43,627 bases of DNA from Escherichia phage TheodorHerzl: the sequence record MZ501107. One strand, given 5' to 3'. Below the pieces are notes generated by a model, which did not search any database, was not told the DNA's origin, and saw nothing but the letters and a program-made list of their open reading frames with translations. Position numbers and translations under genes: made by a program. The stretch's first letter is position 1. Each line of letters starts with the position of its first letter. Positions 9,184 to 23,379 of the stretch are shown here, in pieces.

Positions 9184-9605
9184 TGAGCAATACTCTAATC
9201 CGCAAGGCGCTTAACCGCGTGGTAGAAGATTTATCGGTAAGCCTGAGCACCAGCCAGCGACCGATCCTTGTTAACTGGGAGAACGTGCAAGGGGACCACG
9301 CAAACGGCAGCGGTGTCTACCTGGAACCATATCTGCTTCCGGCCCCTACCCAGTTTGTGGGCTTCCAGCAGAAGGGCCGGATCTATGCAGGCGTGTATCA
9401 GATTGCCGTGGTATTTCCTGCGGGCACTGGCACACAGTATGCGAGCGAACTGGCGGACGCCATCGCGACGTCTGACAAGTGGCAGGCCGTAAGGCTTACC
9501 GGCGCTGCGTTCCAGCTTCAAGACGCGCCATACACCAGTTCGGTGATTGAGGATGTTGATCGCGCCCGCATCGTGGTTACAGTACCCTACACCTGTTGCG
9601 CCTGA
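9183..9605 (+). CDS. tail terminator-like protein (putative)
   Basis: 140 aa with ATG overlapping the upstream stop; lies immediately upstream of the major tail protein. Confidence 0.45.
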   Translation: MSNTLIRKALNRVVEDLSVSLSTSQRPILVNWENVQGDHANGSGVYLEPYLLPAPTQFVGFQQKGRIYAGVYQIAVVFPAGTGTQYASELADAIATSDKWQAVRLTGAAFQLQDAPYTSSVIEDVDRARIVVTVPYTCCA

Positions 9606-9665
9606 TTTGGCGCAATTCTGCGCGTGCTGTATCATTAAACCGTATATCTAAACAGGAGCTTTATT

Positions 9666-10391
9666 ATGGGTTATCAACTTCCCAACGGGTCCAGCGTCCA
9701 GATCGGGTCCGTATTAGGCAGCGGCATCGCGGTTACGGCAGCTACCAACGCCGCGGCGTCAATCTCCGATCTTACGCAAGGTTGCGTAATTACCTGCGCG
9801 GCTTTGCATGGTCTGGTTGTTGGCGACGTTGTTATGTTCACTAAAACCCCGTGGGTCCGAGCGCTTAACCGCGCATTCATCGTGGGTAAAGTGGACGCCA
9901 ACGACGTTACGCTGGCGCGCTTCGACACCGAAGACGTCACAAAATACCCGACCGGCGCTTTCAGCGTAGGCACTCCAGGCGAAGTGGTGAAGGTGTCGGG
10001 CTTTATCGACTTCCCTTTCATTACTAACGTTGCCGTGTCTGGTGGCGACCAGCAGACGACTACCTTCCAGCCGTTGCAGGTGAACACCGCAATCAGTCTG
10101 AACACCACGAAAAACCCGTTGGTACAGACTTACACTTTCACCCACGACGAAGAAGACCCGATCCGCCCAATCCTGGAAGACCTGGACGACACACAGAAAA
10201 CCACTGTGATTAAGTTCACGAACCCAGCGGCAGCAAGCGGCAAAGGTGAAATCCGTATTTACCCTGCTAAGGTATCTTTCCAGAAGATTCCGTCCGCTGA
10301 AGTAAACAACGTGGAAACGGTGCAGTCCACTCTGACCATGCAGTCTGATATGGTTATCTACCGTAAGGACCTGGTCGAGGCGTTGTCTTGA
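9666..10391 (+). CDS. major tail (tube) protein
   Basis: 241 aa with RBS AGGAG, followed by a terminator and then the G/GT chaperone genes. Canonical siphovirus order. Confidence 0.7.
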   Translation: MGYQLPNGSSVQIGSVLGSGIAVTAATNAAASISDLTQGCVITCAALHGLVVGDVVMFTKTPWVRALNRAFIVGKVDANDVTLARFDTEDVTKYPTGAFSVGTPGEVVKVSGFIDFPFITNVAVSGGDQQTTTFQPLQVNTAISLNTTKNPLVQTYTFTHDEEDPIRPILEDLDDTQKTTVIKFTNPAAASGKGEIRIYPAKVSFQKIPSAEVNNVETVQSTLTMQSDMVIYRKDLVEALS

Positions 10392-10421
10392 TTTGGTCGC
10401 TTAAATAGCGAGTGTTAATAT

Positions 10422-10448
10422 GGGGCCAGCAAGGCCCCTTTTTTTATT
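10422..10448 (+). terminator. intrinsic terminator after the major tail protein
   Basis: GGGGCC-AGCAA-GGCCCC followed by a run of eight T. Confidence 0.75.
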
Positions 10449-10461
10449 GGAGAATATTACA

Positions 10462-10824
10462 ATGGCTAAAGCACCACTCTTTACACTTGACCCTAAGCCG
10501 ACCTTTAAGCTGCCGATTGAGATCCCGCGCCCTGGTGAGAACGAACCAGGCAAGATGACGTTTACCGTCCGCCACCGCCCTATCGACGAATTTTCGCAGA
10601 CCATGCAGGACACCGAACGCAAGTTGTCGGAGTATGACGACAATGACCCGGACGGCTTTAACGTTATGGTCGAGGCCATCATGCACGTCGCAGAAGGCTG
10701 GAATCTGCCGGACGAATTTAACGCGGAGAACGTCCGCCGCCTGGTGGTCAACTATCCACGCGCGTTCGGTGTGTTCCACACTTCGTACTATCTCGAACTG
10801 ATGGGATTGCGTGAAAAAAACTAA
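10462..10824 (+). CDS. tail assembly chaperone (G-like)
   Basis: 120 aa from ATG 10462. Ends MGLREKN* with a slippery A-run at its 3-prime end; an open -1 frame continues downstream. Confidence 0.75.
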   Translation: MAKAPLFTLDPKPTFKLPIEIPRPGENEPGKMTFTVRHRPIDEFSQTMQDTERKLSEYDDNDPDGFNVMVEAIMHVAEGWNLPDEFNAENVRRLVVNYPRAFGVFHTSYYLELMGLREKN

Positions 10825-11138
10825 TTGAGGCGGCGCGACGCTTTTATGGCCCGCCGCCACCCTCCGAAGATTTAGCCGCAAGTTTATGGGGTGCGACCCC
10901 CGAAGATGTTTGTCCGCCTGTTGCGCTGTGGCCTGACAACGCGAAGATAGTCGCAGTCTTCACAGATTGCGCCACGCAATGGCGCACCGGATTTGGTGGC
11001 GCATACGGCATCGACTACGGCGTGATGGAGTGGTTATTTAAGATGCACGGTATCGAAAACGAGCAGCGCGCGTTTAAAGATATCAAGCTAATGGAACGAA
11101 TCGCGCTTGATGAGATGGCGCAGCAGAACCCCGCATAA
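10462..11138 (+). CDS. tail assembly chaperone GT fusion, produced by -1 frameshift near 10815-10821
   Basis: The -1 frame extension reads LIEAARRFYGPPPPSEDLAASLWGATPEDVCPPVALWPDNAKIVAVFTDCATQWRTGFGG...MAQQNPA and sits where the T-extension is conserved in siphoviruses. Confidence 0.6.
10815..10821 (+). other. programmed -1 ribosomal frameshift site (A AAA AAC)
   Basis: Heptamer A_AAA_AAC spans the last codons of the G-like ORF. The -1 frame (codon starts divisible by 3) stays open to TAA at 11136-11138. Confidence 0.65.
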
Positions 11139-11258
11139 TGAAGCGGGACAGGCGGGACGTCCCGTTTTGTCCCACCCCTGTGAAACTGCATACCTACTCA
11201 CTTCCATTGCATAATATAAAAGCGGGACAGGCGGGACGTCCCGTTTTGTCCCACCCCA
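11136..11258. repeat. direct repeat: two copies of a ~39-bp unit AAGCGGGACAGGCGGGACGTCCCGTTTTGTCCCACCCC spaced ~80 bp
   Basis: The unit appears identically at about 11141-11178 and 11220-11257. Each contains the palindrome GGGACGTCCC flanked by GGGACA and TGTCCC. Confidence 0.85.
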
Positions 11259-11299
11259 CAAAAGTGCATACGTATTCGGTTTTCGTGCATAAAACAAAC

Positions 11300-11400
11300 T
11301 GGACAAAAAGCGGGACAAACACTAGGCGGGACAAAGCGGGACAGCACCCCGTCCCAGCCAGTGCTGCCGCGGTTTTCAGCCGATCGGGACAGCGGGACAG
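11300..11400. repeat. GGGACA iteron block A
   Basis: Repeated GCGGGACA(A/G) units; about 70 bp is nearly identical to 38636-38705. Confidence 0.8.
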
Positions 11401-11405
11401 CACCC

Positions 11406-11453
11406 CAGTCTTTCAGACTAGACGGGGGTCAACGGCCCCCCTCGTCTGAGACT
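11406..11453 (+). repeat. conserved long imperfect hairpin A (copy of 38757-38803)
   Basis: CAGTCTTTCAGACTAGACGGGGGTCAACGG(C5-6)TCGTCTGAGACT followed by GAATAA. Inverted arms TCAGAC/GTCTGA and GGGGG/CCCCC. This copy appears to carry one extra C relative to copy B, judged from the reading frame of the overlapping ORF in the track. Confidence 0.75.
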
Positions 11454-11522: not shown

Positions 11523-14165
11523 ATGGCAGATCAGGCAGCAGGCATCACGCTAAAGGCTGATGTTGCACAAATCAGAACGGCAAATACTGTGCTGGACTCC
11601 TTCGCACAGAAATCCGAGAACACAGAAAACAAGGTTAAGAAATTAAACGACACCCTCGGCAAATCCAAAAAGGTGACGAGTGACGCCGCGGGCGGAATGG
11701 AAAAGCTGGCAAACGAATCGCAGCGCGCCGCCGATGGCATGACGAAACAGGAGCGACTCGCCAACAGGTTAGGGATGTCGACTAAAAACCTGGGCTTTGC
11801 CTCGCGTAACGCCGCATTCCAGCTACAGGATATTGCGGTAACGCTTGAGATGGGTATGCCGGTTCACCGCGTCATGCTTCAGCAGTTACCGCAGCTAACT
11901 GGGGCGTTCGGTGGACTGGGTAACACGCTGCGTTATGTTGCGGGCTTCCTCGGCCCAGTAGGGATCGGCCTCGCCGCCGTAACGGCAACGTTAGGCGTGG
12001 GCGTGGCAATTACGTCCCGCGCAGAGAACCAGGTCGCCGCGCTTAACAAGACGCTGGCGCTGTCAGGTAACATTTCCGGCCTGACGGCAAACCAGATCCT
12101 GGTGTTATCCGAGAACGCCGAGCGCATGGGCGGATCATTCCGCAAGACGCGTGACACAATCCAGGCGCTGGCGGCGGCGGGTGTGAAAGCGGGTGGTGAC
12201 TTCGGTGCATTGGCTAAGGTAGTGAATGACTTCGCGAAGGTGTCCAGCCAGCCGATCGAGGATGTGGTCGCGGCGGTGGCGAAGCTGTCTACAGACCCGG
12301 TAGGCGGCTTGCGAGCATTGGCTGATAAGTATCACGTCGTAAACGAAGCGCAGATCCAGCAGGTGCAGTCACTAATGACGGCTGGTCGCGAAACCGAAGC
12401 GGTGGCGCTGGCTAACAAAACAGCCGCGGCGTCGTTTACCACTATGACCAACGATATTAAGTCCAGCATGGGTACGCTTGAGCGGTCGATGAACGTCGTT
12501 ACATCGGCAGCTAAATCTATGTGGGATGCCATCCTGGATGTCGGGCGCGCGCAGTCCTCGAATGAGTCAGAGATGAAAGCGCGTGAATCATTGCAGCGAC
12601 TGACCACGGCTTACTATGCCGAGATGAAAGCGGTAAACGCTGCCGGTGGGGTGATGACCGAAGCGCAGAAAGCACGTATTAACATGCTTTATAGCGAAAT
12701 GGTCGCCCAGGAGAAAGTAGTCGCGTCGCTCACCCTGCGCAACCGTGCAGAGCGTGACAACGCCAACGCCGCGGAACAATCAGCAAAGGCGAACGAGGAG
12801 GCAAACCGCACTGCCCGCGACCGCGCCGCGTTTGAGAAGGAGTACGCAACCAACGCTAAGCGGCGCGCCGACGAGATCGCCCGCCTCAATTTGCTTAATA
12901 AGCGCGGCGTGATTAACGAGAAAGAGCTTGCCGAGGCGGTGAAGCAGGTAAACGAGCGTTACAAAGACCCCGCCCCGAAGAAGGCCGCCGCTGTTCGAGT
13001 CGATGCCGGGCTGAAAATGCTGGAGGTCGCACGGAGCGAACTGGCACAGCTTCGGGAATCAGGCAAGCAGATTGAGGCCAACTCTTCGACGCAGACCCGC
13101 ACGCAACGAGCGCAAGCGGCCCTTAACAAGCTGATTGCCGACAACGAGCAGTTAATCGCCGCGAGCAAAGAAAGGGCGCTGACGGCAGCAGAGAAGCAGC
13201 AATTAGTCGAGTTCGGACGCGTGAAGGAAGTACGTGAGCAGATCGTCGAAGAAGCCAAATTGCTGGACGCGAAAGAGAAGCAGGTCAAGGCGCACGCGCA
13301 GATCGACGCCTTCGTTAAGAACCAGAACGCCGAGCTAAAAGCCACCGCGGCGGGATATGCGCTTTCCACTCGCGAAGCGGCTAACCTGCGCGAAGAATTG
13401 CAGCTAATTGACCGCCTTAAGCGGGTGGGCGCTAGCGATACCGATATTGATCTGGCGGTGTCTAAGCTGCGCGAAGTGCAGGAAGCACAGACCGGTGCTA
13501 ATGCCTCGTTGTGGGATGGCTTCAGCCGCGGGCTTAAGGATAGCGTGGATGAAATGGGTAACTGTTATACGCAGATGGCGTCACTCACAAAATTCACGTT
13601 CGGCGCTATGCAGGACACGATGAACGAGTTTTTCGAGACTGGCAAGCTGAACGCAAAGGATATGGTTAAGTCCATCCTGAGCGAATTAATCAAGCTGGCT
13701 ACATCGCAGGCATTCAAGTCCATCGTTAACGCTTTCGGTGGTGACGGCGGCAAAAACGGATTGTTCGGCGCTATCTTCTCTGGCCTCACTAAGAATGCGG
13801 ACGGCGGAGCGTACGCAGGGGGCAATCTCGCGGCCTATTCGGGGAAAGTGGTAAGCCAGCCTACCTTTTTCAGTTATGGCGTTCAGGCGTTCGCTAAGGG
13901 CGCGGGATTGATGGGCGAGGCTGGACCCGAGGCCATCATGCCACTGAAGCGCGGGCCGGACGGGAAACTGGGCGTTGCCGCGTCTGGAGCAGGCGGAGGT
14001 ATGGTCGTGACGACTAACGTTTACACGGGGTCCGGTAAAACAGATACCAGTGTCAGCGGGCCGGACCCCCGTACCGCGCAGGCGTTCGGCAAGCAAATCA
14101 CCGAAGCGGTGAAGGCCGAGATCGTGAAAGCGACGAAACCGGGTGGTGTACTTTACAAACGATGA
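11523..14165 (+). CDS. tape measure protein
   Basis: 880 aa, largely alpha-helical and Ala/Gln-rich, with Gly-rich hydrophobic segments. Lies after the G/GT genes. Confidence 0.9.
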   Translation: MADQAAGITLKADVAQIRTANTVLDSFAQKSENTENKVKKLNDTLGKSKKVTSDAAGGMEKLANESQRAADGMTKQERLANRLGMSTKNLGFASRNAAFQLQDIAVTLEMGMPVHRVMLQQLPQLTGAFGGLGNTLRYVAGFLGPVGIGLAAVTATLGVGVAITSRAENQVAALNKTLALSGNISGLTANQILVLSENAERMGGSFRKTRDTIQALAAAGVKAGGDFGALAKVVNDFAKVSSQPIEDVVAAVAKLSTDPVGGLRALADKYHVVNEAQIQQVQSLMTAGRETEAVALANKTAAASFTTMTNDIKSSMGTLERSMNVVTSAAKSMWDAILDVGRAQSSNESEMKARESLQRLTTAYYAEMKAVNAAGGVMTEAQKARINMLYSEMVAQEKVVASLTLRNRAERDNANAAEQSAKANEEANRTARDRAAFEKEYATNAKRRADEIARLNLLNKRGVINEKELAEAVKQVNERYKDPAPKKAAAVRVDAGLKMLEVARSELAQLRESGKQIEANSSTQTRTQRAQAALNKLIADNEQLIAASKERALTAAEKQQLVEFGRVKEVREQIVEEAKLLDAKEKQVKAHAQIDAFVKNQNAELKATAAGYALSTREAANLREELQLIDRLKRVGASDTDIDLAVSKLREVQEAQTGANASLWDGFSRGLKDSVDEMGNCYTQMASLTKFTFGAMQDTMNEFFETGKLNAKDMVKSILSELIKLATSQAFKSIVNAFGGDGGKNGLFGAIFSGLTKNADGGAYAGGNLAAYSGKVVSQPTFFSYGVQAFAKGAGLMGEAGPEAIMPLKRGPDGKLGVAASGAGGGMVVTTNVYTGSGKTDTSVSGPDPRTAQAFGKQITEAVKAEIVKATKPGGVLYKR

Positions 14166-14172
14166 TAAAATG

Positions 14173-14201
14173 GCCCTCACATCCATCGTGGGGGCTTTTT
14201 T
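14173..14201 (+). terminator. terminator-like hairpin plus T-run after the tape measure gene
   Basis: GCCCTCAC-ATCCATC-GTGGGGGC followed by six T. Confidence 0.5.
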
Positions 14202-14801
14202 ATGTCACAAGGTACAATCACATTAACTAAGGGGAGTAAGACCGTTACGGGCGCGGGAACGGCGTTCCTTAGCGAGATCGGGAAGGTACGCGTATTTACC
14301 CGCATAGACGGCAACGACTACACCGGCAAAATTGCGGCATTCAACTCGAACACGGTCATTACACTGAAAGATAACTGGGCCGGTCCGACGAAATCCGGTG
14401 CGGCATATGAACTAATCGAAGCACACGACCCGCGGTCAAACGAATGGCCATATTACTGGCACATGCAATTGCAGGGCGGCGGCGACGTGCAGTTAGCTTT
14501 CCGATCCGAGGAATTGCAATTCGGTAATGGTTACGGGCAGAACATCGCGGACGGCCAGAACGCCGAGACGAAACAATTTCCCGTGCAATTCATAGGACTG
14601 ACTACTGACAAGTGGTGCGACCCTAAACTGGTTTACAACTTTCTTCGCGGTCACTTCGTCAAACCGTTTGTCGTCACCGCTCCGGATGGCGAAACAGGTT
14701 TATTCGTGGTCGAGCGTTCGAGCTTGTCGTACACTGACAACGGACACAACACGGCAACGGTATCCGCCACCCTTAAGACAGCTATTGGATTCGTAAGATG
14801 A
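14202..14801 (+). CDS. minor tail protein (M position) with an N-terminal domain shared with the tail fibre
   Basis: 199 aa, first gene after the tape measure. Its N-terminal ~75 aa (MSQGTITLTKGSKTVTGAGTAF...SNTVITL...GPTKSG) align with the N-terminus of the 21655 fibre (MAAGTLSVTNNSKAVVGVGTTF...SNTALTL...GPTATG). Confidence 0.7.
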   Translation: MSQGTITLTKGSKTVTGAGTAFLSEIGKVRVFTRIDGNDYTGKIAAFNSNTVITLKDNWAGPTKSGAAYELIEAHDPRSNEWPYYWHMQLQGGGDVQLAFRSEELQFGNGYGQNIADGQNAETKQFPVQFIGLTTDKWCDPKLVYNFLRGHFVKPFVVTAPDGETGLFVVERSSLSYTDNGHNTATVSATLKTAIGFVR

Positions 14802-15586
14802 ATAAACTATATCGCGAGGCGACGCGCTTTGACCCATCGGGCCGCGTTCGCCTGATTCACATTGACGCTCAGGACGTGGAGCCAGGCGATGGCGCGATCG
14901 GAGCGGGCCACCACTATTTTCACTACTGCTTTATTCCGCACACTGCCGAGGATATTGCCGCCGCAGGCGGTGACGAGGACAAGCTAAAACCTAAATCCAT
15001 CTTCTTCGGCGGGCAGGAGTTCGAATTTTGGCCCTTCGATCTTTCCGGCCTTAACTTCTCCACATCAACGGCAGCAGAACCGCAGCTAACCATCGTTGAT
15101 ATTGGCGGCATAATTACCCGGCTGTCGCTGAATCACGACCAGCTACTGGGCGCGAAGGTTGAAATAATCGACACGTTCGCGAAGTTCCTGGATAACGGGT
15201 CGGATCCAGACCCGACGCAAAAACGTGTCCAGGAGTATTACATCGACTCACAGGTCGGGCGCAATCCGGGCAAGCAAATCACCTTCGCATTATCCTCACC
15301 CGCGGATATGGAGGGGCAAGTAGTTCCCCGCCGCCAAATCATGAATATGTGCGAATGGGCTTTAAATGGGAAGTACGCCAGCGGGGACGGTTGCACCTGG
15401 AACCTTGCGAAGCCAGGTATCAAGTATTACGACGAGCGAGGTAATGAAGTCATCGCGATGAACATGGACCTATGCGGCGGCTGTTTGTCCGACTGTTATC
15501 TTCGATTTGGGCAAGGGCTTGCCGATCCTAAAGCGGCGGTGCTGGACTTCGGCGGCTTTCCGGGGTCGCGATTAATTAAGGGGTAG
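14798..15586 (+). CDS. minor tail protein L-like
   Basis: 262 aa with ATGA overlap to the upstream gene. A C-terminal Cys cluster (C...CGGCLSDC) is consistent with the Fe-S site described for lambda gpL. Confidence 0.8.
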   Translation: MNKLYREATRFDPSGRVRLIHIDAQDVEPGDGAIGAGHHYFHYCFIPHTAEDIAAAGGDEDKLKPKSIFFGGQEFEFWPFDLSGLNFSTSTAAEPQLTIVDIGGIITRLSLNHDQLLGAKVEIIDTFAKFLDNGSDPDPTQKRVQEYYIDSQVGRNPGKQITFALSSPADMEGQVVPRRQIMNMCEWALNGKYASGDGCTWNLAKPGIKYYDERGNEVIAMNMDLCGGCLSDCYLRFGQGLADPKAAVLDFGGFPGSRLIKG

Positions 15587-15588
15587 TC

Positions 15589-16329
15589 ATGTTAACGAAG
15601 AAGGTTAAAAGCGATATCGCCGCACACGTCGCGGCATGTCTGCCGGAAGAAGCCTGCGGCCTGGTTGTCATGGTGGGCCGCAAACAAGTGTTTATCCCGT
15701 GCCCGAACGTCTTCGAAGACCCCACCGGCGCTCGCTCGCGAAAGGACGCGTTTACAATTAGTGATATGGCCTGGATGGATGCCGAGGATATGGGCGACGT
15801 TGTGCGCGTAGTCCACTCGCACCCCGGTCAGCGCGAGCTAACACCGTCATTGGGCGACGTCAACGGATGCAACGGCAGCGGCGTCGTCTGGACCATCACT
15901 AACGAATATGGCGACTTCATCGAGATCGACCCGGAAGACCCGCCGCTGGTAGGACGCCGATTTGTTCTCGGGGTTACGGACTGTTACGGCCTCGTCATGG
16001 CATGGCATAAAAAGCAGGGCGTAAACCTGCCAGACTTCCGCGTACCGTACAACTGGTGGGAGGAAGGCGAAAACCTGTATATGGACAATTGGTATGGCGC
16101 GGGCTTCCGGGAGTGTGCGGAGAATACACCAGGGGCTATGGTCATCATGCAGATTAGCGCGCCAGTTCCTAACCATGCCGGAATCTACCTTCCGGGCAAC
16201 CAACTACTACACCATATCTACGGCAGCCTGTCGAGCGTGATCCCCTTCCGGGCAGGATTTTTCCGCGACAATGTGGTTAAATGGGTACGTCATAAAGACC
16301 TACCGGGGAATATCACAGAATGGCAATGA
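15589..16329 (+). CDS. tail assembly protein K-like (MPN/JAMM plus NlpC/P60-like)
   Basis: 246 aa. HSHPGQRELTPSLGD resembles a JAMM/MPN motif; the C-terminal half contains Cys/His residues as in NlpC/P60 domains. Confidence 0.8.
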   Translation: MLTKKVKSDIAAHVAACLPEEACGLVVMVGRKQVFIPCPNVFEDPTGARSRKDAFTISDMAWMDAEDMGDVVRVVHSHPGQRELTPSLGDVNGCNGSGVVWTITNEYGDFIEIDPEDPPLVGRRFVLGVTDCYGLVMAWHKKQGVNLPDFRVPYNWWEEGENLYMDNWYGAGFRECAENTPGAMVIMQISAPVPNHAGIYLPGNQLLHHIYGSLSSVIPFRAGFFRDNVVKWVRHKDLPGNITEWQ

Positions 16330-16937
16330 CCACATTTAAATTGTACGGCGTCTTAGGACGTCGTTTTGGTAAAGTGCATAAGCTGGACTGCTTCACACCG
16401 GGCGAAGGAATCACCGGCTTGTGTGTGAAGTTGCCAGGGTTACAAGACTTTTTAATGTCAGCCCACCTGGACAACATGATGTTCAAAGTGCGCAAGGGCA
16501 ATCACACCATGACCGGCTACGATGAGCTGGGCGAGTTCCACGGCGACCGCGTAGTGACCATCGCGCCGGTTATGACGGGCGCAAAAAGCGGACTGGGCCA
16601 ATTGCTGGCGGGTGTAGCGATCGTGGTGGCGTCGTTCTATACCGGAGGGCTTGCGACTGCCGCTTTCGGAGCTTCAGCGGCGACCGCGGCATCTATCGGC
16701 GCAGCGACGTTTTCGTTCGGGATGTCGATGGCGCTGGGTGGCGTTATGCAATTGTTATCACCGCAACCGAAGGGATTGCAAACACGGCAGGACGTGGATA
16801 ACAAGGCGTCGTATGCGTTCGGCGGACCGGTAAACACGACCGCGCAAGGTACGGCACTTGGTGTATTATGGGGCGAGCGTGAGATCGGCGGCGCTATTAT
16901 TTCCGCCGGAATCGTAACCGAGGACTTGAACGAATGA
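16320..16937 (+). CDS. tail assembly protein I-like
   Basis: 205 aa with a Gly/Ala-rich hydrophobic C-terminal half, lying between the K-like and J-like genes. Confidence 0.7.
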   Translation: MAMTTFKLYGVLGRRFGKVHKLDCFTPGEGITGLCVKLPGLQDFLMSAHLDNMMFKVRKGNHTMTGYDELGEFHGDRVVTIAPVMTGAKSGLGQLLAGVAIVVASFYTGGLATAAFGASAATAASIGAATFSFGMSMALGGVMQLLSPQPKGLQTRQDVDNKASYAFGGPVNTTAQGTALGVLWGEREIGGAIISAGIVTEDLNE

Positions 16938-19900
16938 CGATTATCTACGACGTCACGGGCCATAAAGGCGGCGGTGGCAAGCAGCACACCCCACAGGAGA
17001 CGCCTGACAGCCTGCATTCGCTGGCTAAAATCCGCATCTTGCTCGCGCTGGGCGAAGGTGAGTTCGAAGGCATTACCGACCCTAACGAATTACGGCAGCG
17101 CGTATACCTGGACGGAACACCGATCCAGAACGCCGACCGGTCTGAAAACTTCCCAGGCGCGCGCGTGGAGTTCCGCCCAGGCACGCAGCATCAAGACGTG
17201 ATTCACGGATTTTCTGCGGTGGAAAGCGAGCAAACAGTGGGCGTAAAACTGGAAAACGGCACGCCGTGGGTGCGCCAGATTAATGACACCAGTCTTGACG
17301 CCGTGCGCATTCGAATCGGCATTCCGGCCCTATACACTAACGAAGATAATGGCGACCTGGTGGGCGGGCGCATCGACTATAAGATCGTTGTGTATACGGA
17401 TAACGCCGACCCGCGTGAGTTCAGATTCGCCGCCGTTGGTAAAACAATGTCGCTATATGAGCGCGACCACCGCATCGAATTACCGCCGAACGTGAATACC
17501 GGCTGGCGAGTGGAGGTGCACCGCATAACGGCAGACTCCACATCGGCGAAAGTGGTGAACGATATTCAGGTGCAATCCATCACTGAGATTATCGACGCCC
17601 GCCTGCGTTACCCGCTAACCGCGCTGTTGTTTGTGGAGTTCGACGCCAAAGCGTTCCAGAACATCCCGCGCGTGTCCATCAAGTGCAAAGGCCGCAAAGT
17701 TCTAATACCGAACAACTACGACCCGATTAATCATACCTATTCCGGGGACTGGGACGGCACGTTTAAACGCGCATGGACGGATAACCCCGCGTGGCACTGG
17801 TACGATATTTGTATTACTGAGCGCTTCGGCCTCGGTCGGCGTATCAAACCGCAAATGTTAAACCGGTACGCGCTCTACCAGATTGCGCAGCGCTGCGATC
17901 AGTTGGTCAGCGACGGCAACGGTGGTCGAGAAATCCGCTTTAAGAATGATATGTACATTCAGTCACAGACGGATGCCTGGACCGTGCTTAAGGATTTAGC
18001 CGCTATCTTTGCCGGTATGACCTGGTGGGGAAATCAGATGTTGAATATCGTCAGTGACCAGCCGGTCGCAGCGGTATCGCACACCATCACCAACGCCTCG
18101 GTCATTGATGGTCGATTCGACTACGCGTCCGGTAGCCAGAAAACTCGGTATTCCACATTCGCGGTAGCATACGGCAACTCGAAGAACCACTATGAAGATG
18201 CCATTGCTACGGGGCAGCGTGTCGAACTGGTACGCCGCCATAAGATTAACCGTCTGGATATAACGGCGATCGGCTGTACGCGTGAGTCAGAAGCGCAACG
18301 ACGTGGGCACTGGGCGCTAATCTCCAACCAGCTTGACCAGCAAGTTAGCTTTAAGGTTGGCATGGAAGGACTATTCTTTATTCCGGGTAGCGTAGTCGCG
18401 ATCGCCGATACAAACATTTCTGGAGGCTTCGAGACACGCGGCGGTCGCCTGTTGTCGGACCCTGGCACGCGTACCGTGCTTAACACTGACAGCGAAATCA
18501 CATTCCGCCCTGGTGATAAGTTCCTGGTGCGCACCGATAGCGGAAATGTGGAGACTCGCGAGATCGCCAGCGTCAACGGCAACAAGGTTACGCTAAAAAC
18601 CGCACTGGACGCCGACCCGATTCCTGATCAGCCGTTTTGCGTCGATGGCAACGATATCCAGTTGCAGAAGTTCCGCATCACCGACCTGGAATATGACGAC
18701 TCTACCAGCACTTTTTCAGTGCGCGGGATCGAGTACAACGATAGCAAATATGATGCCGTTGATAATGGCGCTCGCCTTGACCCTGGCATCTTTACGCAAG
18801 TGCCTGACGGCGTAATGAAGGGGCCGGAGTCAGTGACCATCACCCCGTCGCAGATTTCATCGCAAGGCCAGCTAATCACCAACGTGGATATTGTATTCCC
18901 GCCGGTGAAGGACGCCGTGGTGTATGAAATCCAGTGGCGACGTACCAGCTTGCAGAATATGGCGATCCAGTGGGGAAACGACTGGGTAAACATCCCCCGC
19001 ACGGCATCGAACGGCGCTCACATCCCTAACGTGTTCTCCGGTAACTACCAGGCACGCGTCCGCGCAATCGGTATGGGCGAGATTTCGTCCCCGTGGGTGT
19101 CGTCCGCTATCACGCCGATCGAAGGTCGTCTCGGCGGGCTTAACGCGCCAATCATCACCAACGCGATTTCGGGCCTCCACCAAATTTTGTGGAAGTGGAA
19201 CCACAACAACGCCGCGACGGATATCTCTTACACCGAGCTTGAAGTCCGCAAGACTGGTGAGACGGAATGGAAGTTCCTAACCAACGTCCCATATCCGGGG
19301 GCGGAGTATGCGCAAACGTCACTGGAGTTCGGCATCTACCAGCAGTTGCGCGCCCGCGTAGCAGATAAAATCGGCAACCTGTCGGACTGGTCGGCCCAGT
19401 TTGAAGGGCAGGTGAGTGACAAAGTTGACGAGTACATGAAGGGGCTTGATGACGAGTTCTTGACTTCCGAGGATGGTAAGCACTTCCAGGAAGCTATTAA
19501 CACGATCCCGCAAGGCATTTATGAGTCAATGCTCACCGACGCCCAGCAGCTATTCAATGCCCGCGCCGAGTATAAAGGGATTTATGCGGAAATCACGGTG
19601 GCGTATAACGTGGCGGCGGATGCCCACAAGGCGGTCGCGCAACTTGAGACGTTGATCGGCACTCGTCTTGACGATGCAGAAGCGTCGATCCACACGTTGC
19701 AGACCGCGCAAAGCACGCATGAACAAGCGTTCGCCCAGTATCAACAAACTGTTGCCGCTAAGTTCGGGGAGCAGGAATCAGCCATCCAGCAGGTACAAAC
19801 GGCAACGGCAGACGTAGCGGGAGCGCTGGCGGAGTACAAGACCCAGGTAGCGACACAGTTCGGTCAGCAGTCCGCCGCGATCGAGCAGAAGATGACGTCT

Positions 19901-20386
19901 TCGTTTAACCATGCTGGTGGTAGCGCCACCTACAGCCTTAAGGCGGGCGTGACGTATAACGGGACTTACTATGATGCCGGTATGCAGCTTTCCGTCGTGA
20001 CGTCGGGCAACGCAGTTAAATCTCGTATTGCGTTCAAGGCCGACCAGTTCTACATTATGCACCCGTCGAATGGGTCGCTTTCGTCCGCGTTTATCGTTGA
20101 CGGCGGTCAGGTGTATATTGACACGGCGCGCATCAAGGACGCGTCCATCAATTTCGCGCAGATCACGGACACGCTGCAATCAAATAACTTCGTTTCGGGG
20201 TCACGCGGCTGGCGTATCCAGAAAGGCGGCGCTGCGGAGTTTAACGAAGTAACGGCCCGCGGCAGGCTGTACGCTAACAGTGGTGAGTTCGCTTTTAACG
20301 GACAAAATAACACCGTGCAGATTAACGGGAATGGGGTTACAGTTAACCTACCCGGAGGGGGAAGGGTTGTATTAGGTGTGTTCTGA
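16934..20386 (+). CDS. host specificity / central tail fibre protein (J-like)
   Basis: 1150 aa with ATGA overlap to the upstream gene. Size and position match lambda J-type tip proteins. Confidence 0.9.
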   Translation: MTIIYDVTGHKGGGGKQHTPQETPDSLHSLAKIRILLALGEGEFEGITDPNELRQRVYLDGTPIQNADRSENFPGARVEFRPGTQHQDVIHGFSAVESEQTVGVKLENGTPWVRQINDTSLDAVRIRIGIPALYTNEDNGDLVGGRIDYKIVVYTDNADPREFRFAAVGKTMSLYERDHRIELPPNVNTGWRVEVHRITADSTSAKVVNDIQVQSITEIIDARLRYPLTALLFVEFDAKAFQNIPRVSIKCKGRKVLIPNNYDPINHTYSGDWDGTFKRAWTDNPAWHWYDICITERFGLGRRIKPQMLNRYALYQIAQRCDQLVSDGNGGREIRFKNDMYIQSQTDAWTVLKDLAAIFAGMTWWGNQMLNIVSDQPVAAVSHTITNASVIDGRFDYASGSQKTRYSTFAVAYGNSKNHYEDAIATGQRVELVRRHKINRLDITAIGCTRESEAQRRGHWALISNQLDQQVSFKVGMEGLFFIPGSVVAIADTNISGGFETRGGRLLSDPGTRTVLNTDSEITFRPGDKFLVRTDSGNVETREIASVNGNKVTLKTALDADPIPDQPFCVDGNDIQLQKFRITDLEYDDSTSTFSVRGIEYNDSKYDAVDNGARLDPGIFTQVPDGVMKGPESVTITPSQISSQGQLITNVDIVFPPVKDAVVYEIQWRRTSLQNMAIQWGNDWVNIPRTASNGAHIPNVFSGNYQARVRAIGMGEISSPWVSSAITPIEGRLGGLNAPIITNAISGLHQILWKWNHNNAATDISYTELEVRKTGETEWKFLTNVPYPGAEYAQTSLEFGIYQQLRARVADKIGNLSDWSAQFEGQVSDKVDEYMKGLDDEFLTSEDGKHFQEAINTIPQGIYESMLTDAQQLFNARAEYKGIYAEITVAYNVAADAHKAVAQLETLIGTRLDDAEASIHTLQTAQSTHEQAFAQYQQTVAAKFGEQESAIQQVQTATADVAGALAEYKTQVATQFGQQSAAIEQKMTSSFNHAGGSATYSLKAGVTYNGTYYDAGMQLSVVTSGNAVKSRIAFKADQFYIMHPSNGSLSSAFIVDGGQVYIDTARIKDASINFAQITDTLQSNNFVSGSRGWRIQKGGAAEFNEVTARGRLYANSGEFAFNGQNNTVQINGNGVTVNLPGGGRVVLGVF

Positions 20387-20390
20387 AATT

Positions 20391-20410
20391 AAAGCCCCGC
20401 AAGGGGCTTT
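20391..20410. terminator. bidirectional terminator hairpin between the J-like gene and the convergent minus-strand cassette
   Basis: AAAGCCCC-GCAA-GGGGCTTT, A/T-flanked on both sides. Confidence 0.65.
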
Positions 20411-21344
20411 AATACATGTTTGGGAGGTACGGCAGCGGAGTTGGTATCGTAACGTCGGGTCTGTTGCCGATTGCGTACCTTACAATCCGGGAGCCAGTTC
20501 CCGACCTTACATATCCGCCACTCATAACTACGCCTTTGTTTCTTAGTTCCTTATATGCTGGTATGGCCCTTGTGTTGAACCCACACCTTAGAATGGGGAA
20601 GTAAGAATCCCCGATATACTGATTGCTTCCTGACAGACTTATAAACCCGGACACAACAAAGGGCCTGGTAACTGTTGAAAGAATACAGGCGCCGTTGCGG
20701 TTAAATATGTTTAACCCCGGTCCCGGAACGGGCGCAACCATCTGGAAAATAACCAAATCCATAGTAACACTTCCGGGGGTGTGCCCTGTATCTTTTGTGT
20801 TTATGTTTGTACAAATCAACCGATTAACTCCGTCGTACTCAACAGAAACACCGGAATTGTCCCACCTGCCGAACGGTATGCCGTAGATGGGGAGGGTGTA
20901 ACTATCATGGAATGATATAGTTTGAGCAAATTTGCAGACAAGCAACCGGTCCGTTGTGGTTATCGATGTAAAATCCGTACTGTCGGCAACGTAGATCCCC
21001 TGGCCTGTCGATGCTCTAAGAACCTCAACTACAGTTCCAGAGAACTGCGTTACGCGGTCGGGATAACCATTCACAGAGCCAATAGATATAGTTCCGCTGG
21101 ATGCTGTTGACGAAAAGCCCTTTATATAATAAGCCTCAACACCCCGGTCCAGTTCGAAGGAGTATGCGCCATTGTTCGGCAGCAGAAACCTTGAAGCCCC
21201 TTCATTACCTTTAATGGGGAATGACTTGCTAAACCCGCCACTTGAAACGTTGAAGTTACCCGCAAAATTCAAGGCACGCATACCCGCGGTGATTGTCATC
21301 GGTTTACGGCCATCCTTAAGATCGATGTAAATACCTTGCGCCAT
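20409..21344 (-). CDS. hypothetical beta-rich Ser/Thr/Gly-rich protein (311 aa), possible receptor-binding or host-range accessory protein
   Basis: Minus-strand ORF against the flow of the tail operon. Its ATG overlaps the stop of the upstream lipoprotein gene (TAATG). Appears lower in GC than its flanks, by eye. No recognisable motif. Confidence 0.6.
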   Translation of the reverse strand: MAQGIYIDLKDGRKPMTITAGMRALNFAGNFNVSSGGFSKSFPIKGNEGASRFLLPNNGAYSFELDRGVEAYYIKGFSSTASSGTISIGSVNGYPDRVTQFSGTVVEVLRASTGQGIYVADSTDFTSITTTDRLLVCKFAQTISFHDSYTLPIYGIPFGRWDNSGVSVEYDGVNRLICTNINTKDTGHTPGSVTMDLVIFQMVAPVPGPGLNIFNRNGACILSTVTRPFVVSGFISLSGSNQYIGDSYFPILRCGFNTRAIPAYKELRNKGVVMSGGYVRSGTGSRIVRYAIGNRPDVTIPTPLPYLPNMY

Positions 21345-21574
21345 TAGTTCCACTCCCGGGAGCCATAATCGCGAACGGAGCCGCCATGCCCTTTAATTCC
21401 GTCATAACGAATATCAACTTCACCCGCCGGAACGACTACACCGCCTTTCCATTTAGCCACACATACGCCGCTTGCTTGCGTAGCGCACCAACCATCCGGA
21501 CGCGGGCCAGAAGAGCAACCAACAGTTATTACTACTACCGCGGCAATGATTGCGGATTTGATTAAAGTTTTCAT
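21344..21574 (-). CDS. small outer-membrane lipoprotein (76 aa), candidate Cor/Llp-like superinfection-exclusion protein
   Basis: RBS GGAGAT upstream. Signal peptide with lipobox [20 protein letters not shown], and a mature part with two more Cys. Position next to the tail fibre genes matches where T1/phi80 cor and T5 llp sit. Confidence 0.55.
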
Positions 21575-21654
21575 GTTATCATCTCCTTTATTTGGTTGAG
21601 TTTTAGTATTACACCGCTCGATCAAGAATGCAACCAATTTAAGAGGATTTAGCT

Positions 21655-23379
21655 ATGGCAGCGGGTACGCTCTCCGTAACGAACAATAGCAAGGCGGTAG
21701 TAGGGGTCGGCACAACGTTCACCGCGTTCAAGGCTGGCGACTTCTTATCGCTGGTGGTAGGGCAAGTGCCTTACACCGTAGCGATCGCATCAATCGAAAG
21801 TAACACGGCGCTTACGCTGGTGCTGCCGTTCGACGGCCCAACGGCAACCGGCCTTGCGTGGGACGGCGTTAAACGCGATACCCTGTCACTGGCAACGATG
21901 GGCGTTACCGTCCAGGCCCAGAAAGCATTGCGCTTGATGATTGCCGACGAAAACAACTGGCGTGCAATCTTCGGCGAAGAAGAAGAAATCTCGGTCACGC
22001 TACCTAACGGTCAAGTGGTGCAGGGTATGTCGTGGGGCTATTTGTCCTCCTTGCTGAAGGAAGTAGACCCCGTTGAGATGCGCAACCTTCAACAACAGGC
22101 CGAGAACGCTCGCAACCAGGCGCAAGGCTACCGTGATGAGGCGGAAGGTTTTAAAAACCAGATTAACCCTGCACTATTCGTGCAGAAGTCCCAAAACCTG
22201 AATGACGTTGCCGATAAAGCTGAGGCGCGCGCTAACTTGCAAGTTTTATTTGCGTCAAACTCTAACCTGGGGTCTACCGACCTCAACACGCTCAACAGCA
22301 CGAAGGAAGGGCGTTATTACCAGACCACATCGGTGAACGCTACACCAGAGCGTAACTACCCGTTTCAGGAAGCCGGTTGTCTTACCGTGTTTAAAACCGG
22401 CGGGGGTAGTGTGGAGGCTTGCATCCAGGAGTACACCACGTTTTCAAGCCTGCGTCGGTTCGTCCGTGCGCTCGCTGGGGCGGTGTGGACGGAGTGGAAG
22501 GAGATCTACCTGCAAGGGTCGTCCCCAACATACGAAAATATCGACTCGACAGGACGAGTTAGATCTGAAAAGGCATATCCGGCGTTCGAGTGGGTGTCGA
22601 CGAGAGTAGACGACGATTTCATCGGTAAGCGAGTCAGCATTGAGAACGACACAGGCGTTAATATGTATATGTTCTTCATGCAGAAAGACACAACCGCAAA
22701 CAGACGTGTCGTAGCGTTCGCAAGGCCAAACTCTACTGTTTTCCACTTCGTAGGATATAACGGCGGGCTACCCACAGACGGCAACAGCGCCCCGTCGGAT
22801 AACATTAACTTTAACACGCAACCGCAAGGATGGCGTATGGTGTCCGGCGGCTGGCAAAATGCACCGCTCGCCGGGAACAACTACGGGACTTTATTCACGC
22901 AGTGTGTGCAAGGTGTGTCGCAGGGGGATTCTAAAAACAGCGGCACTTCTGGCCTATGGTACTCACAGCGATATTTTAATACAGAATCGCGGGCGTTTAT
23001 CCGAAATCAAACAAACAACGCAGACTGGGGCGGGTGGTATGAATTTACTAAAACGGCAGTCTCGGATGAACGCCTGAAGAATGTAAAAGGTAATTTGAAT
23101 GTTGAAGGTGCGCTCGATAACATCAACCGCATGGAATTTAAAATATTCTCGTTTAAGGATGAGAAGGCCGGTAAGGGGTATCGTCGCGGTGTTATCTCGC
23201 AGCAGATTCGCCAGATCGATAAAGAGTACACGAAGGAGATCGGCGGGTACTATCACCTCGACCAGACACCAATGCTACTGGACGCCCTAGCGGCAATTAA
23301 GGCGTTGCGTGCGCGTGACGAGGCTAATAAAGCAGAGATTGCAGAACTGAAGGCGGCTATTGCCGAATTGAAGCAATAA
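21655..23379 (+). CDS. tail fibre protein with C-terminal intramolecular chaperone (S74-like) domain
   Basis: 574 aa with RBS AAGAGGA. The C-terminal ~105 aa begin at the SDERLKN motif and end in a coiled coil, typical of self-cleaving fibre chaperone domains. N-terminus is homologous to the 14202 gene product. Confidence 0.8.
   Translation: MAAGTLSVTNNSKAVVGVGTTFTAFKAGDFLSLVVGQVPYTVAIASIESNTALTLVLPFDGPTATGLAWDGVKRDTLSLATMGVTVQAQKALRLMIADENNWRAIFGEEEEISVTLPNGQVVQGMSWGYLSSLLKEVDPVEMRNLQQQAENARNQAQGYRDEAEGFKNQINPALFVQKSQNLNDVADKAEARANLQVLFASNSNLGSTDLNTLNSTKEGRYYQTTSVNATPERNYPFQEAGCLTVFKTGGGSVEACIQEYTTFSSLRRFVRALAGAVWTEWKEIYLQGSSPTYENIDSTGRVRSEKAYPAFEWVSTRVDDDFIGKRVSIENDTGVNMYMFFMQKDTTANRRVVAFARPNSTVFHFVGYNGGLPTDGNSAPSDNINFNTQPQGWRMVSGGWQNAPLAGNNYGTLFTQCVQGVSQGDSKNSGTSGLWYSQRYFNTESRAFIRNQTNNADWGGWYEFTKTAVSDERLKNVKGNLNVEGALDNINRMEFKIFSFKDEKAGKGYRRGVISQQIRQIDKEYTKEIGGYYHLDQTPMLLDALAAIKALRARDEANKAEIAELKAAIAELKQ

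Follow-up and report, generated by a model that had tools for sequence, protein, structure and literature searches.

A fibre-anchor-type barrel module at the N-terminus of the distal tail protein of Escherichia phage TheodorHerzl, with a homologue on the lateral tail fibre

The DNA analysed here is a 43,627-nt stretch from Escherichia phage TheodorHerzl (record MZ501107), which we call the window. TheodorHerzl is a Dhillonvirus (HK578-like), and the DNA of its tail region is 91–94% identical to that of HK578, Over9000, EC115, SO-1, EP23 and about 150 others. Pfam and PHROG profiles give the tail gene order as tape measure, M, L, K, I and J, and the features of this region relevant to the analysis are the following.

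11523-14165: tape measure gene (TMP_2 / Tape_meas_lam_C; Pfam)
14202-14801, + strand: distal tail protein (DTP), 199 aa, homologous to lambda gpM and extended by a module at the N-terminus (Phage_min_tail, phrog_9922, PDB 23gd_B)
14202-14417, + strand: predicted beta-barrel module of the DTP, aa 1-72
14418-14456, + strand: linker between module and core of the DTP, aa 73-85, IEAHDPRSNEWPY (between the end of the module alignment and the Pfam start)
14457-14780, + strand: DTP core, aa 86-193, tail-tube-like gpM fold (PF05939; T1 9l9p_H)
14798-15586: gpL-like gene (Phage_tail_L; Pfam)
15589-16329: gpK-like gene (JAB+NlpC/P60; Pfam)
16320-16937: I-like tail assembly gene (phrog_32)
16934-20386, + strand: J-like central fibre, 1150 aa (Pfam FNIII-A_GpJ, Phage-tail_3, Phage_Tail_Tip)
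21655-23379, + strand: lateral tail fibre, 574 aa (phrog_1980 tail fibre, E=1e-119)
21655-21864, + strand: predicted beta-barrel module of the lateral fibre, aa 1-70 (BLASTP to M, family HMM)

The product of the 14202 gene, hereafter M, is a DTP of the lambda gpM type. Its residues 86-193 match positions 5-106 of the 108 in the Phage_min_tail profile (PF05939) with 44.9 bits, above the curated cutoff of 39, and its gene lies between the tape measure and the homologues of gpL, K, I and J. The family profile and the gene order thus bear out the earlier note on this DNA, which had placed the greater part of this product at the lambda M position. M also matches phrog_9922 over its full length, and its core matches the T1 DTP (9l9p_H) both in sequence (E=1.5e-12) and in a Foldseek comparison (E=1.5e-4). 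A near-identical PDB chain is 23gd_B, "Distal tail protein gp20", likewise of 199 aa (E=3.7e-130; ~96% identity, counted by hand on the printed alignment). Other chains from the same near-identical phage are 23gd_C ("Hub protein gp21") and 23gd_D ("J-like tail tip protein gp24"), and its "Tail protein gp15" is present in 10lj, 10xw and 23gd. The 23gd listing of two gp20, one gp21 and one gp24 chains fits a 6:3:3 composition under C3 symmetry. A search of PDB sequences with the lateral fibre returned no lateral fibre chain in any entry, 23gd included; its sole match is its own N-terminus cross-matching 23gd_B. A full-text literature search found no paper describing 23gd, 10lj or 10xw, and the Oekolampad-LptDE paper contains no account of the tail tip.

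Homologues of the 21655 product in related phages are annotated as tail fibre or lateral tail fibre, and its C-terminal region contains a Peptidase_S74 intramolecular chaperone at aa 470-524 (Pfam). Two minus-strand genes lie between the J-like and fibre genes: a DUF6453 membrane protein gene at 20409-21353 (phrog_1265, category "moron") and, overlapping it, a small ORF at 21344-21637 that is annotated in relatives as a lipoprotein (Pfam Phage_lipoprotein). Their location suggests that they are superinfection-exclusion genes.

Residues 1-70 of M and residues 1-70 of the lateral fibre align without a gap, with 25 of 70 positions identical (36%), 54% positives, 39.7 bits and E=3e-8 (BLASTP of the single pair, computed with composition-based statistics). 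The earlier note had claimed that the two N-termini are homologous over ~75 residues at 35–40% identity and had let this claim depend on a significant pairwise score, which is what the comparison gives; the motifs that it listed (G-T, SK-x-V-x-G-x-GT-x-F, SNT-x-TL and GPT-x-G) are all present in the alignment. A family HMM made from 324 module instances of unrelated proteins matches the N-terminus of M with E=4e-32 and that of the fibre with E=2e-21. None of the remaining six-frame ORFs of the window matches this HMM better than E=0.57, so the window holds exactly two copies. PHROG tail-fibre profiles (phrog_17834, 28473, 1980, 12714 and others) also match M aa 1-72, with E-values from 1e-12 to 8e-19, and phrog_2712 has the module in an internal position.

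The module is widespread. A HMMER search with M residues 1-80 against 1.84 billion cluster representatives found 708 that carry it at E<=1e-3. In many of these proteins the module stands at residue 1 of a fibre-sized protein, while others contain 2 to 13 tandem copies in chains of 1,000–3,700 aa (P0009-P0014 and others), and a family of ~350–380 aa with two copies (P0016, P0017, P0021 and others) resembles the SU10 head-to-tail adaptor. The family consensus is GTVxVTNGSxxVTGxGTxF...Y.I.SV.S.T.LTL..NY.G.T.SG..Y. A Pfam scan of isolated modules gave no family at E<=10, the whole module-bearing proteins scanned showed no Pfam family on the module, and a word-index homologue search with the 80-aa module alone found nothing. 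The tandem-array proteins also contain PKD domains, and these array proteins only give a cumulative, sub-threshold signal to Pfam Phage_attach (lambda gpFII).

In an AF2 model (pLDDT 87) the module of ~72 residues is a six-stranded beta-barrel, the fold of the fibre and tailspike anchor barrels of the PyoF13 type; in the full-length model of M, pLDDT is low from aa 75 onward. The predicted fold resembles tailspike N-terminal domains and the B domain of T5 pb9, and the fold comparison also lists barrel domains in the tail tips of lambda (gpJ), JBD30 and R4C. At the sequence level, M aa 2-81 are homologous to aa 5-82 of the F2-pyocin side fibre PyoF13 (PDB 25ve_A, E=5e-5). [quoted passage not shown] According to three cryo-EM studies of 2026, the F-pyocin domain attaches three trimeric side fibres to the coiled-coil shaft of the central fibre, with the domains of neighbouring protomers forming a pseudo-sixfold ring in which each trimer engages through two of its three protomers. 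The sole experimentally defined role in the module family is protein-protein docking of a fibre, in the F-pyocins, and not glycan binding. Because the homologous F-pyocin domain attaches side fibres, we interpret the shared module, on its sequence, as a fibre-anchor barrel, and its presence on a DTP as the unusual part. In the 21655 fibre the barrel continues into the fibre body, and N-terminal coiled coils have been described by the BASEL authors in a related Dhillonvirus fibre. The barrel of M lacks the stem or helical shaft of the PyoF13 type and is followed by ~13 residues and then the DTP core.

The region in question is rich in G, T, S and V and has no Pfam model over it, and it might thus be argued that the M/fibre resemblance is one of chance or of Gly/Thr/Ser-rich composition, the N-terminal 80 residues of M being a lineage-specific extension without a defined fold. 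We give this explanation practically no weight. The pairwise E-value of 3e-8 and profile E-values of 1e-21 to 1e-32 speak against it, as do the 708 homologous cluster representatives, the confident barrel model with a homologous solved domain in F-pyocins, and the purifying selection on the M barrel (dN/dS 0.135, see below). Pairwise, profile and family statistics together rule out a chance or compositional origin of the likeness.

A common origin of the two modules does not make one of them the parent of the other. Both begin at residue 1 with M-x-x-G-T and have the GPT-x-G subtype motif in common, as would be expected if the 5' end of the phage's own fibre gene had recently been copied in front of M, leaving a specific paralogous pair. 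Such a within-genome duplication is nevertheless very improbable. The two modules are only 36% identical, and when 305 module instances are ordered by their similarity to the M module, that of the cognate fibre comes 125th: 124 other instances are nearer, N-terminal modules of other proteins reach ~43–51% identity, and the module of N15 gp25 ranks 46th at 42%. The M module is also 41–45% identical to the fibres of N15, HK225, SPN3UB and ES18 in tblastn comparisons. It therefore appears not to be a copy of the module of the phage's own lateral fibre. Since it keeps the M-x-x-G-T start that is typical of fibre N-termini, its most likely source is a fibre gene from a different phage lineage, whose 5' end would have been taken up together with the start codon. 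The earlier note had suggested domain shuffling between the two proteins; the shuffling stands, but the rank of the cognate fibre module does not support an exchange between these two.

In the phage collection, the fusion to M is restricted to Dhillonvirus, with 156 records at >=60% identity. There are 60 weaker matches, and all among those listed are on fibre, minor-tail or hypothetical genes of other phage groups. When proteins are clustered at 50% identity, the M fusion is one representative among the 150 listed. The Dhillonvirus DTP module is also present at 96–97.5% identity in MG065648.1 (Campylobacter phage A144) and OQ221563.1 (Acinetobacter phage NJ01); the host labels of these records may be wrong, or the samples contaminated.

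Across Dhillonvirus records the module of the lateral fibre is 82–99% conserved. Over 18 genomes, dN/dS is 0.135 for the M barrel (variable sites 42/80), 0.032 for the M core (19/119) and 0.080 for the fibre module (22/80). With such a ratio and so many variable sites, the M barrel is maintained by selection, yet it is the most variable part of the tail-tip genes. Its variation is illustrated by phage Pandora71, in which the barrel (L004 9501-9740, against TheodorHerzl 14202-14441) is 70% identical to that of TheodorHerzl, with 24 substitutions in 80 residues. Elsewhere Pandora71 is close to TheodorHerzl, with 96.6% identity in the M core, 96% in the fibre module, and 96–98% in the tape measure protein, L, K, I and J. 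Because synonymous divergence is also raised in the barrel (0.69 vs 0.38), the sequence suggests a recombinational allele replacement confined to ~240 bp. The fibre module shows no matching change.

Relatives with a shorter M-like protein, for which the earlier note had proposed to look, do exist. Short M-like proteins of 122–125 aa, 58–62% identical to TheodorHerzl M, start at a WPY motif. Three metagenomic contigs (L001-L003) have the same gene order as TheodorHerzl, with tape measure, K, I and J proteins 95–97% identical to it, and their M, of 123 aa and 64% identity, begins at the core and has no barrel. The fibre N-terminus of L001 is 94% identical to that of TheodorHerzl. Further short M proteins are those of T1 (117 aa), N15 (gp17, 115 aa) and the F2-pyocin (113 aa in the PDB), and in N15 the short gp17 occurs alongside the module-bearing fibre gp25. 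As shorter M-like relatives exist, the N-terminal ~80 residues of M are an added module; the short-M relatives, N15 and the F2-pyocin also mean that the fibre module needs no barrel on M to exist.

The three contigs without the barrel differ from TheodorHerzl in the next gene as well (short M and long gpL homologue at L001 10001-11609). Their gpL homologue has 415 aa instead of 262, through a 153-aa insertion after residue ~57. No family of Pfam or PHROG matches this insertion, which shows ~40% identity to a part of the "minor tail proteins" of ~48-kb Klebsiella siphophages and a weak match (E=1.6e-4) to residues 502-617 of the R4C "megatron" protein. The gpL insertion has the look of a cassette that decorates the tail tip in an alternative way, and M and L together behave as an exchangeable segment with alternative peripheral decorations.

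The TheodorHerzl DTP can be compared with several established systems. It has the PF05939 core and the position between tape measure and gpL in common with the DTPs of lambda (gpM), T1 and F-pyocins, which, however, are 109–117 aa long and consist of the core only, whereas it carries the additional ~80-residue N-terminal module. That module is homologous to the side fibre N-domain of F-pyocins (PyoF13 / PA0643 / PA0646, residues ~2-76), a small barrel at the extreme N-terminus that has been described as OB-like. The F-pyocin domain is part of a trimeric fibre, leads into a stem helix and docks on the coiled-coil shaft of the central fibre; the M barrel, in contrast, is stemless, fused to a DTP ring protein and far from the central fibre shaft. 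Decorated DTPs are also known, such as T5 pb9, the phage Chi DTP, Sf11 gp17 and the "evolved Dit" of Gram-positive phages, but compared with these the extra domain of TheodorHerzl is N-terminal and a sequence homologue of fibre anchors. The B domain of T5 pb9 is C-terminal, and the modules of evolved Dits are inserted. In M, by comparison with pb9, aa 1-72 precede the core at 86-193. The M module has no detectable sequence relation to pb9; only one distant member of the module family matches PF21430 (E=0.008).

Small beta domains also occur at the tube/tip junction in the Stf dodecamer of Ur-lambda and in the collars of T5 p132 and DT57C LtfC, the same place as is expected for the Dhillonvirus barrels. 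Those domains are part of a fibre or a separate protein and are present in 12 copies, whereas the Dhillonvirus barrel is covalently fused to the DTP, presumably in six copies. The collar domains of Ur-lambda and T5 are reported to be Ig-like, the Ur-lambda paper describing a six-strand sheet plus helix (PMC12617516); the M barrel is thus not of the Ig-like beta-sandwich, 12-copy collar type seen in Ur-lambda Stf and T5 p132. Decorated DTPs, fibre collars and N-terminal anchor domains are, then, already established; the structure of the pyocin domain dates from 2026, and the PDB contains a near-identical DTP. We found no earlier description of the homology between the extra domain of this DTP and fibre anchors, the one on its own lateral fibre among them, or of the alternation of this domain with a gpL insertion in close relatives.

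The likely position of the M barrel can be deduced by analogy. In Ur-lambda, twelve N-terminal domains of Stf encircle, as a collar, the junction between the last gpV ring and the gpM ring; this collar contacts K2 and W6 of gpM, and the N-terminus of gpM lies on the outer side of the tube/tip junction (PMC12617516). Because the core of the TheodorHerzl DTP starts (aa 86) at Pfam position 5 and the linker is ~13 residues long, the M barrels should be displayed at the periphery of the tube/tip junction, in the "collar" position. The DTP would form the ring that joins tail tube and tail tip, with one barrel per subunit at the periphery of the junction, and six in all if the ring is hexameric as in lambda.

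Placed there, the M barrel may be a captured anchor barrel that serves as an accessory decoration outside the DTP ring and not as an obligatory dock of the cognate fibre, an interpretation which we favour and to which we give about an even chance. The barrel would be an accessory peripheral binding module, as in decorated or "evolved" DTPs (for example the OB-like B domain of T5 pb9), its most likely role being weak contact with host surface polysaccharide; bracing of the junction would be the alternative. The lateral fibre would dock elsewhere, through its own module and the stem that follows, on a conserved partner, for which the helical shaft of the J-like protein is one candidate. The J-like protein has a helix-rich stretch, at ~869-952 by a crude composition scan and ~830-990 by eye, and its aa ~892-1104 align with residues 977-1189 of the F2-pyocin central fibre (E=3e-18), an alignment whose first F2 residue (977) lies past the kink reported at 953-956. 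By analogy with the pyocin, this stretch is a candidate docking site for the fibre module.

We favour accessory decoration because the short-M variants keep the fibre N-terminus, because the M barrel is the more variable of the two and varies without co-variation of the fibre module, because the PDB entries hold no fibre chain, and because pairs of modules are rare in other phages: a narrow alignment of the SU10_adaptor-like family gave 80 module-bearing viral loci, of which three have the module in two ORFs. Several points count against it. The one role defined in the family is fibre docking, in F-pyocins; no carbohydrate-binding signature was found in the M barrel, and there is no Pfam match at E<=10. 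The rarity of pairs among these 80 loci can also be read the other way, as a hint that the Dhillonvirus pairing is functional and not accidental. Finally, six barrels by themselves could not close a ring around a tube as wide as the DTP, as twelve small domains do in Ur-lambda, which fits a collar of mixed composition better than free decoration.

Such a mixed collar is the main competing explanation. The barrels of the DTP and the N-terminal barrels of the fibre would sit side by side around the junction and hold the lateral fibres there; there would be twelve, for example, if the DTP gave six and each of three trimeric fibres two. The DTP would supply built-in collar subunits, perhaps setting the number of lateral fibres. 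Beyond the ring size and the rare presence of one module on two proteins of a single virion, this arrangement draws on the pseudo-sixfold ring formed by the homologous F-pyocin domains with two of three protomers engaged per trimer, on the twelve fibre N-domains of Ur-lambda that sit exactly at the gpM N-terminus, on the docking of receptor-binding proteins by DTP extensions in Sf11 and other phages, and on an unrelated locus (L033) in which the module is present both on an adaptor-like ring protein and on a beta-helix spike. The natural variants argue the other way, however: the short-M relatives retain a fibre N-terminus that is 94% identical, N15 combines a short M with a module-bearing fibre, the M of the F2-pyocin is short too, and the Pandora71 barrel has changed at 24 of 80 residues next to an almost unchanged fibre module. 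Moreover, F-pyocin fibres dock on the central fibre and not on the DTP, no PDB entry, 23gd included, contains a fibre chain, and most module-bearing adaptor-like proteins have no module-bearing fibre nearby. On balance we consider a mixed collar rather unlikely, and its more specific form, in which DTP barrels would fill half of ~12 collar positions and fibre barrels the rest, so that the fusion fixes fibre number and geometry, more doubtful still. If a mixed collar were formed, relatives with a short M would have a collar of fibre barrels only, or would rely on the gpL insertion instead. The earlier note had proposed a common docking domain, which F-pyocin homology makes plausible; that M and the fibre work together is somewhat disfavoured by the short-M relatives, Pandora71 and the PDB entries without a fibre chain.

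A general rule of homotypic docking between ring proteins and fibres was considered and rejected, as only 3 of the 80 loci have the module in two ORFs. Locus L033 offers an independent example of a module common to ring protein and spike: an SU10_adaptor-like protein and a nearby beta-helix tailspike (9578-10540 and 12014-13327) have one copy each.

Lateral fibres decide whether small E. coli siphophages cross the O-antigen layer, and for this reason the way in which fibres are fastened matters for host-range engineering by fibre swaps. The ~72-residue barrel of Dhillonvirus fibres is one member of a very large family without a Pfam match at E<=10, and it may anchor fibres more widely, the anchoring role having been shown in F-pyocins only. 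That one lineage fused a fibre-type barrel to its DTP, and that variants free of the fusion exist in nature, gives a ready-made comparison for the function of the barrel. If accessory decoration is correct and the barrels do not co-assemble with fibre anchors, the TheodorHerzl DTP is one more example of a decorated DTP. If they do co-assemble, as in a mixed collar, side fibres would have a new, fourth way of being attached beside those described for monocin, Ur-lambda, T5 and F-pyocins, in which a ring protein and a fibre assemble homotypically through paralogous anchor domains.

Potential RNA structures were also seen around the tape measure gene. On the minus strand, three hairpin-forming repeats (11144-11164, 11223-11243 and 11327-11356), two of them identical (CGGGACGTCCCGCCTGTCCCG), lie between the tail assembly chaperone gene and the tape measure gene and overlap the ORF 11138-11449. 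On the plus strand, a 9-bp GC-rich hairpin followed by TTTTTT (14172-14196; -17.4 kcal/mol in ViennaRNA) lies between the tape measure stop (14163-14168) and the start of M, ending right at the ATG of the DTP gene (start 14202). Its 3' arm contains the only Shine-Dalgarno-like run (GGGGG). The hairpin is kept in 17 other Dhillonvirus loci, with changes in the loop and pairing-preserving changes in the stem (T.G to T-A in L005 and L017), and the short-M contig L001 has a hairpin and T-run of different sequence at the corresponding site. Attenuation, or control of translation, between the tape measure gene and the genes of the tail tip is a possible role of the hairpin.
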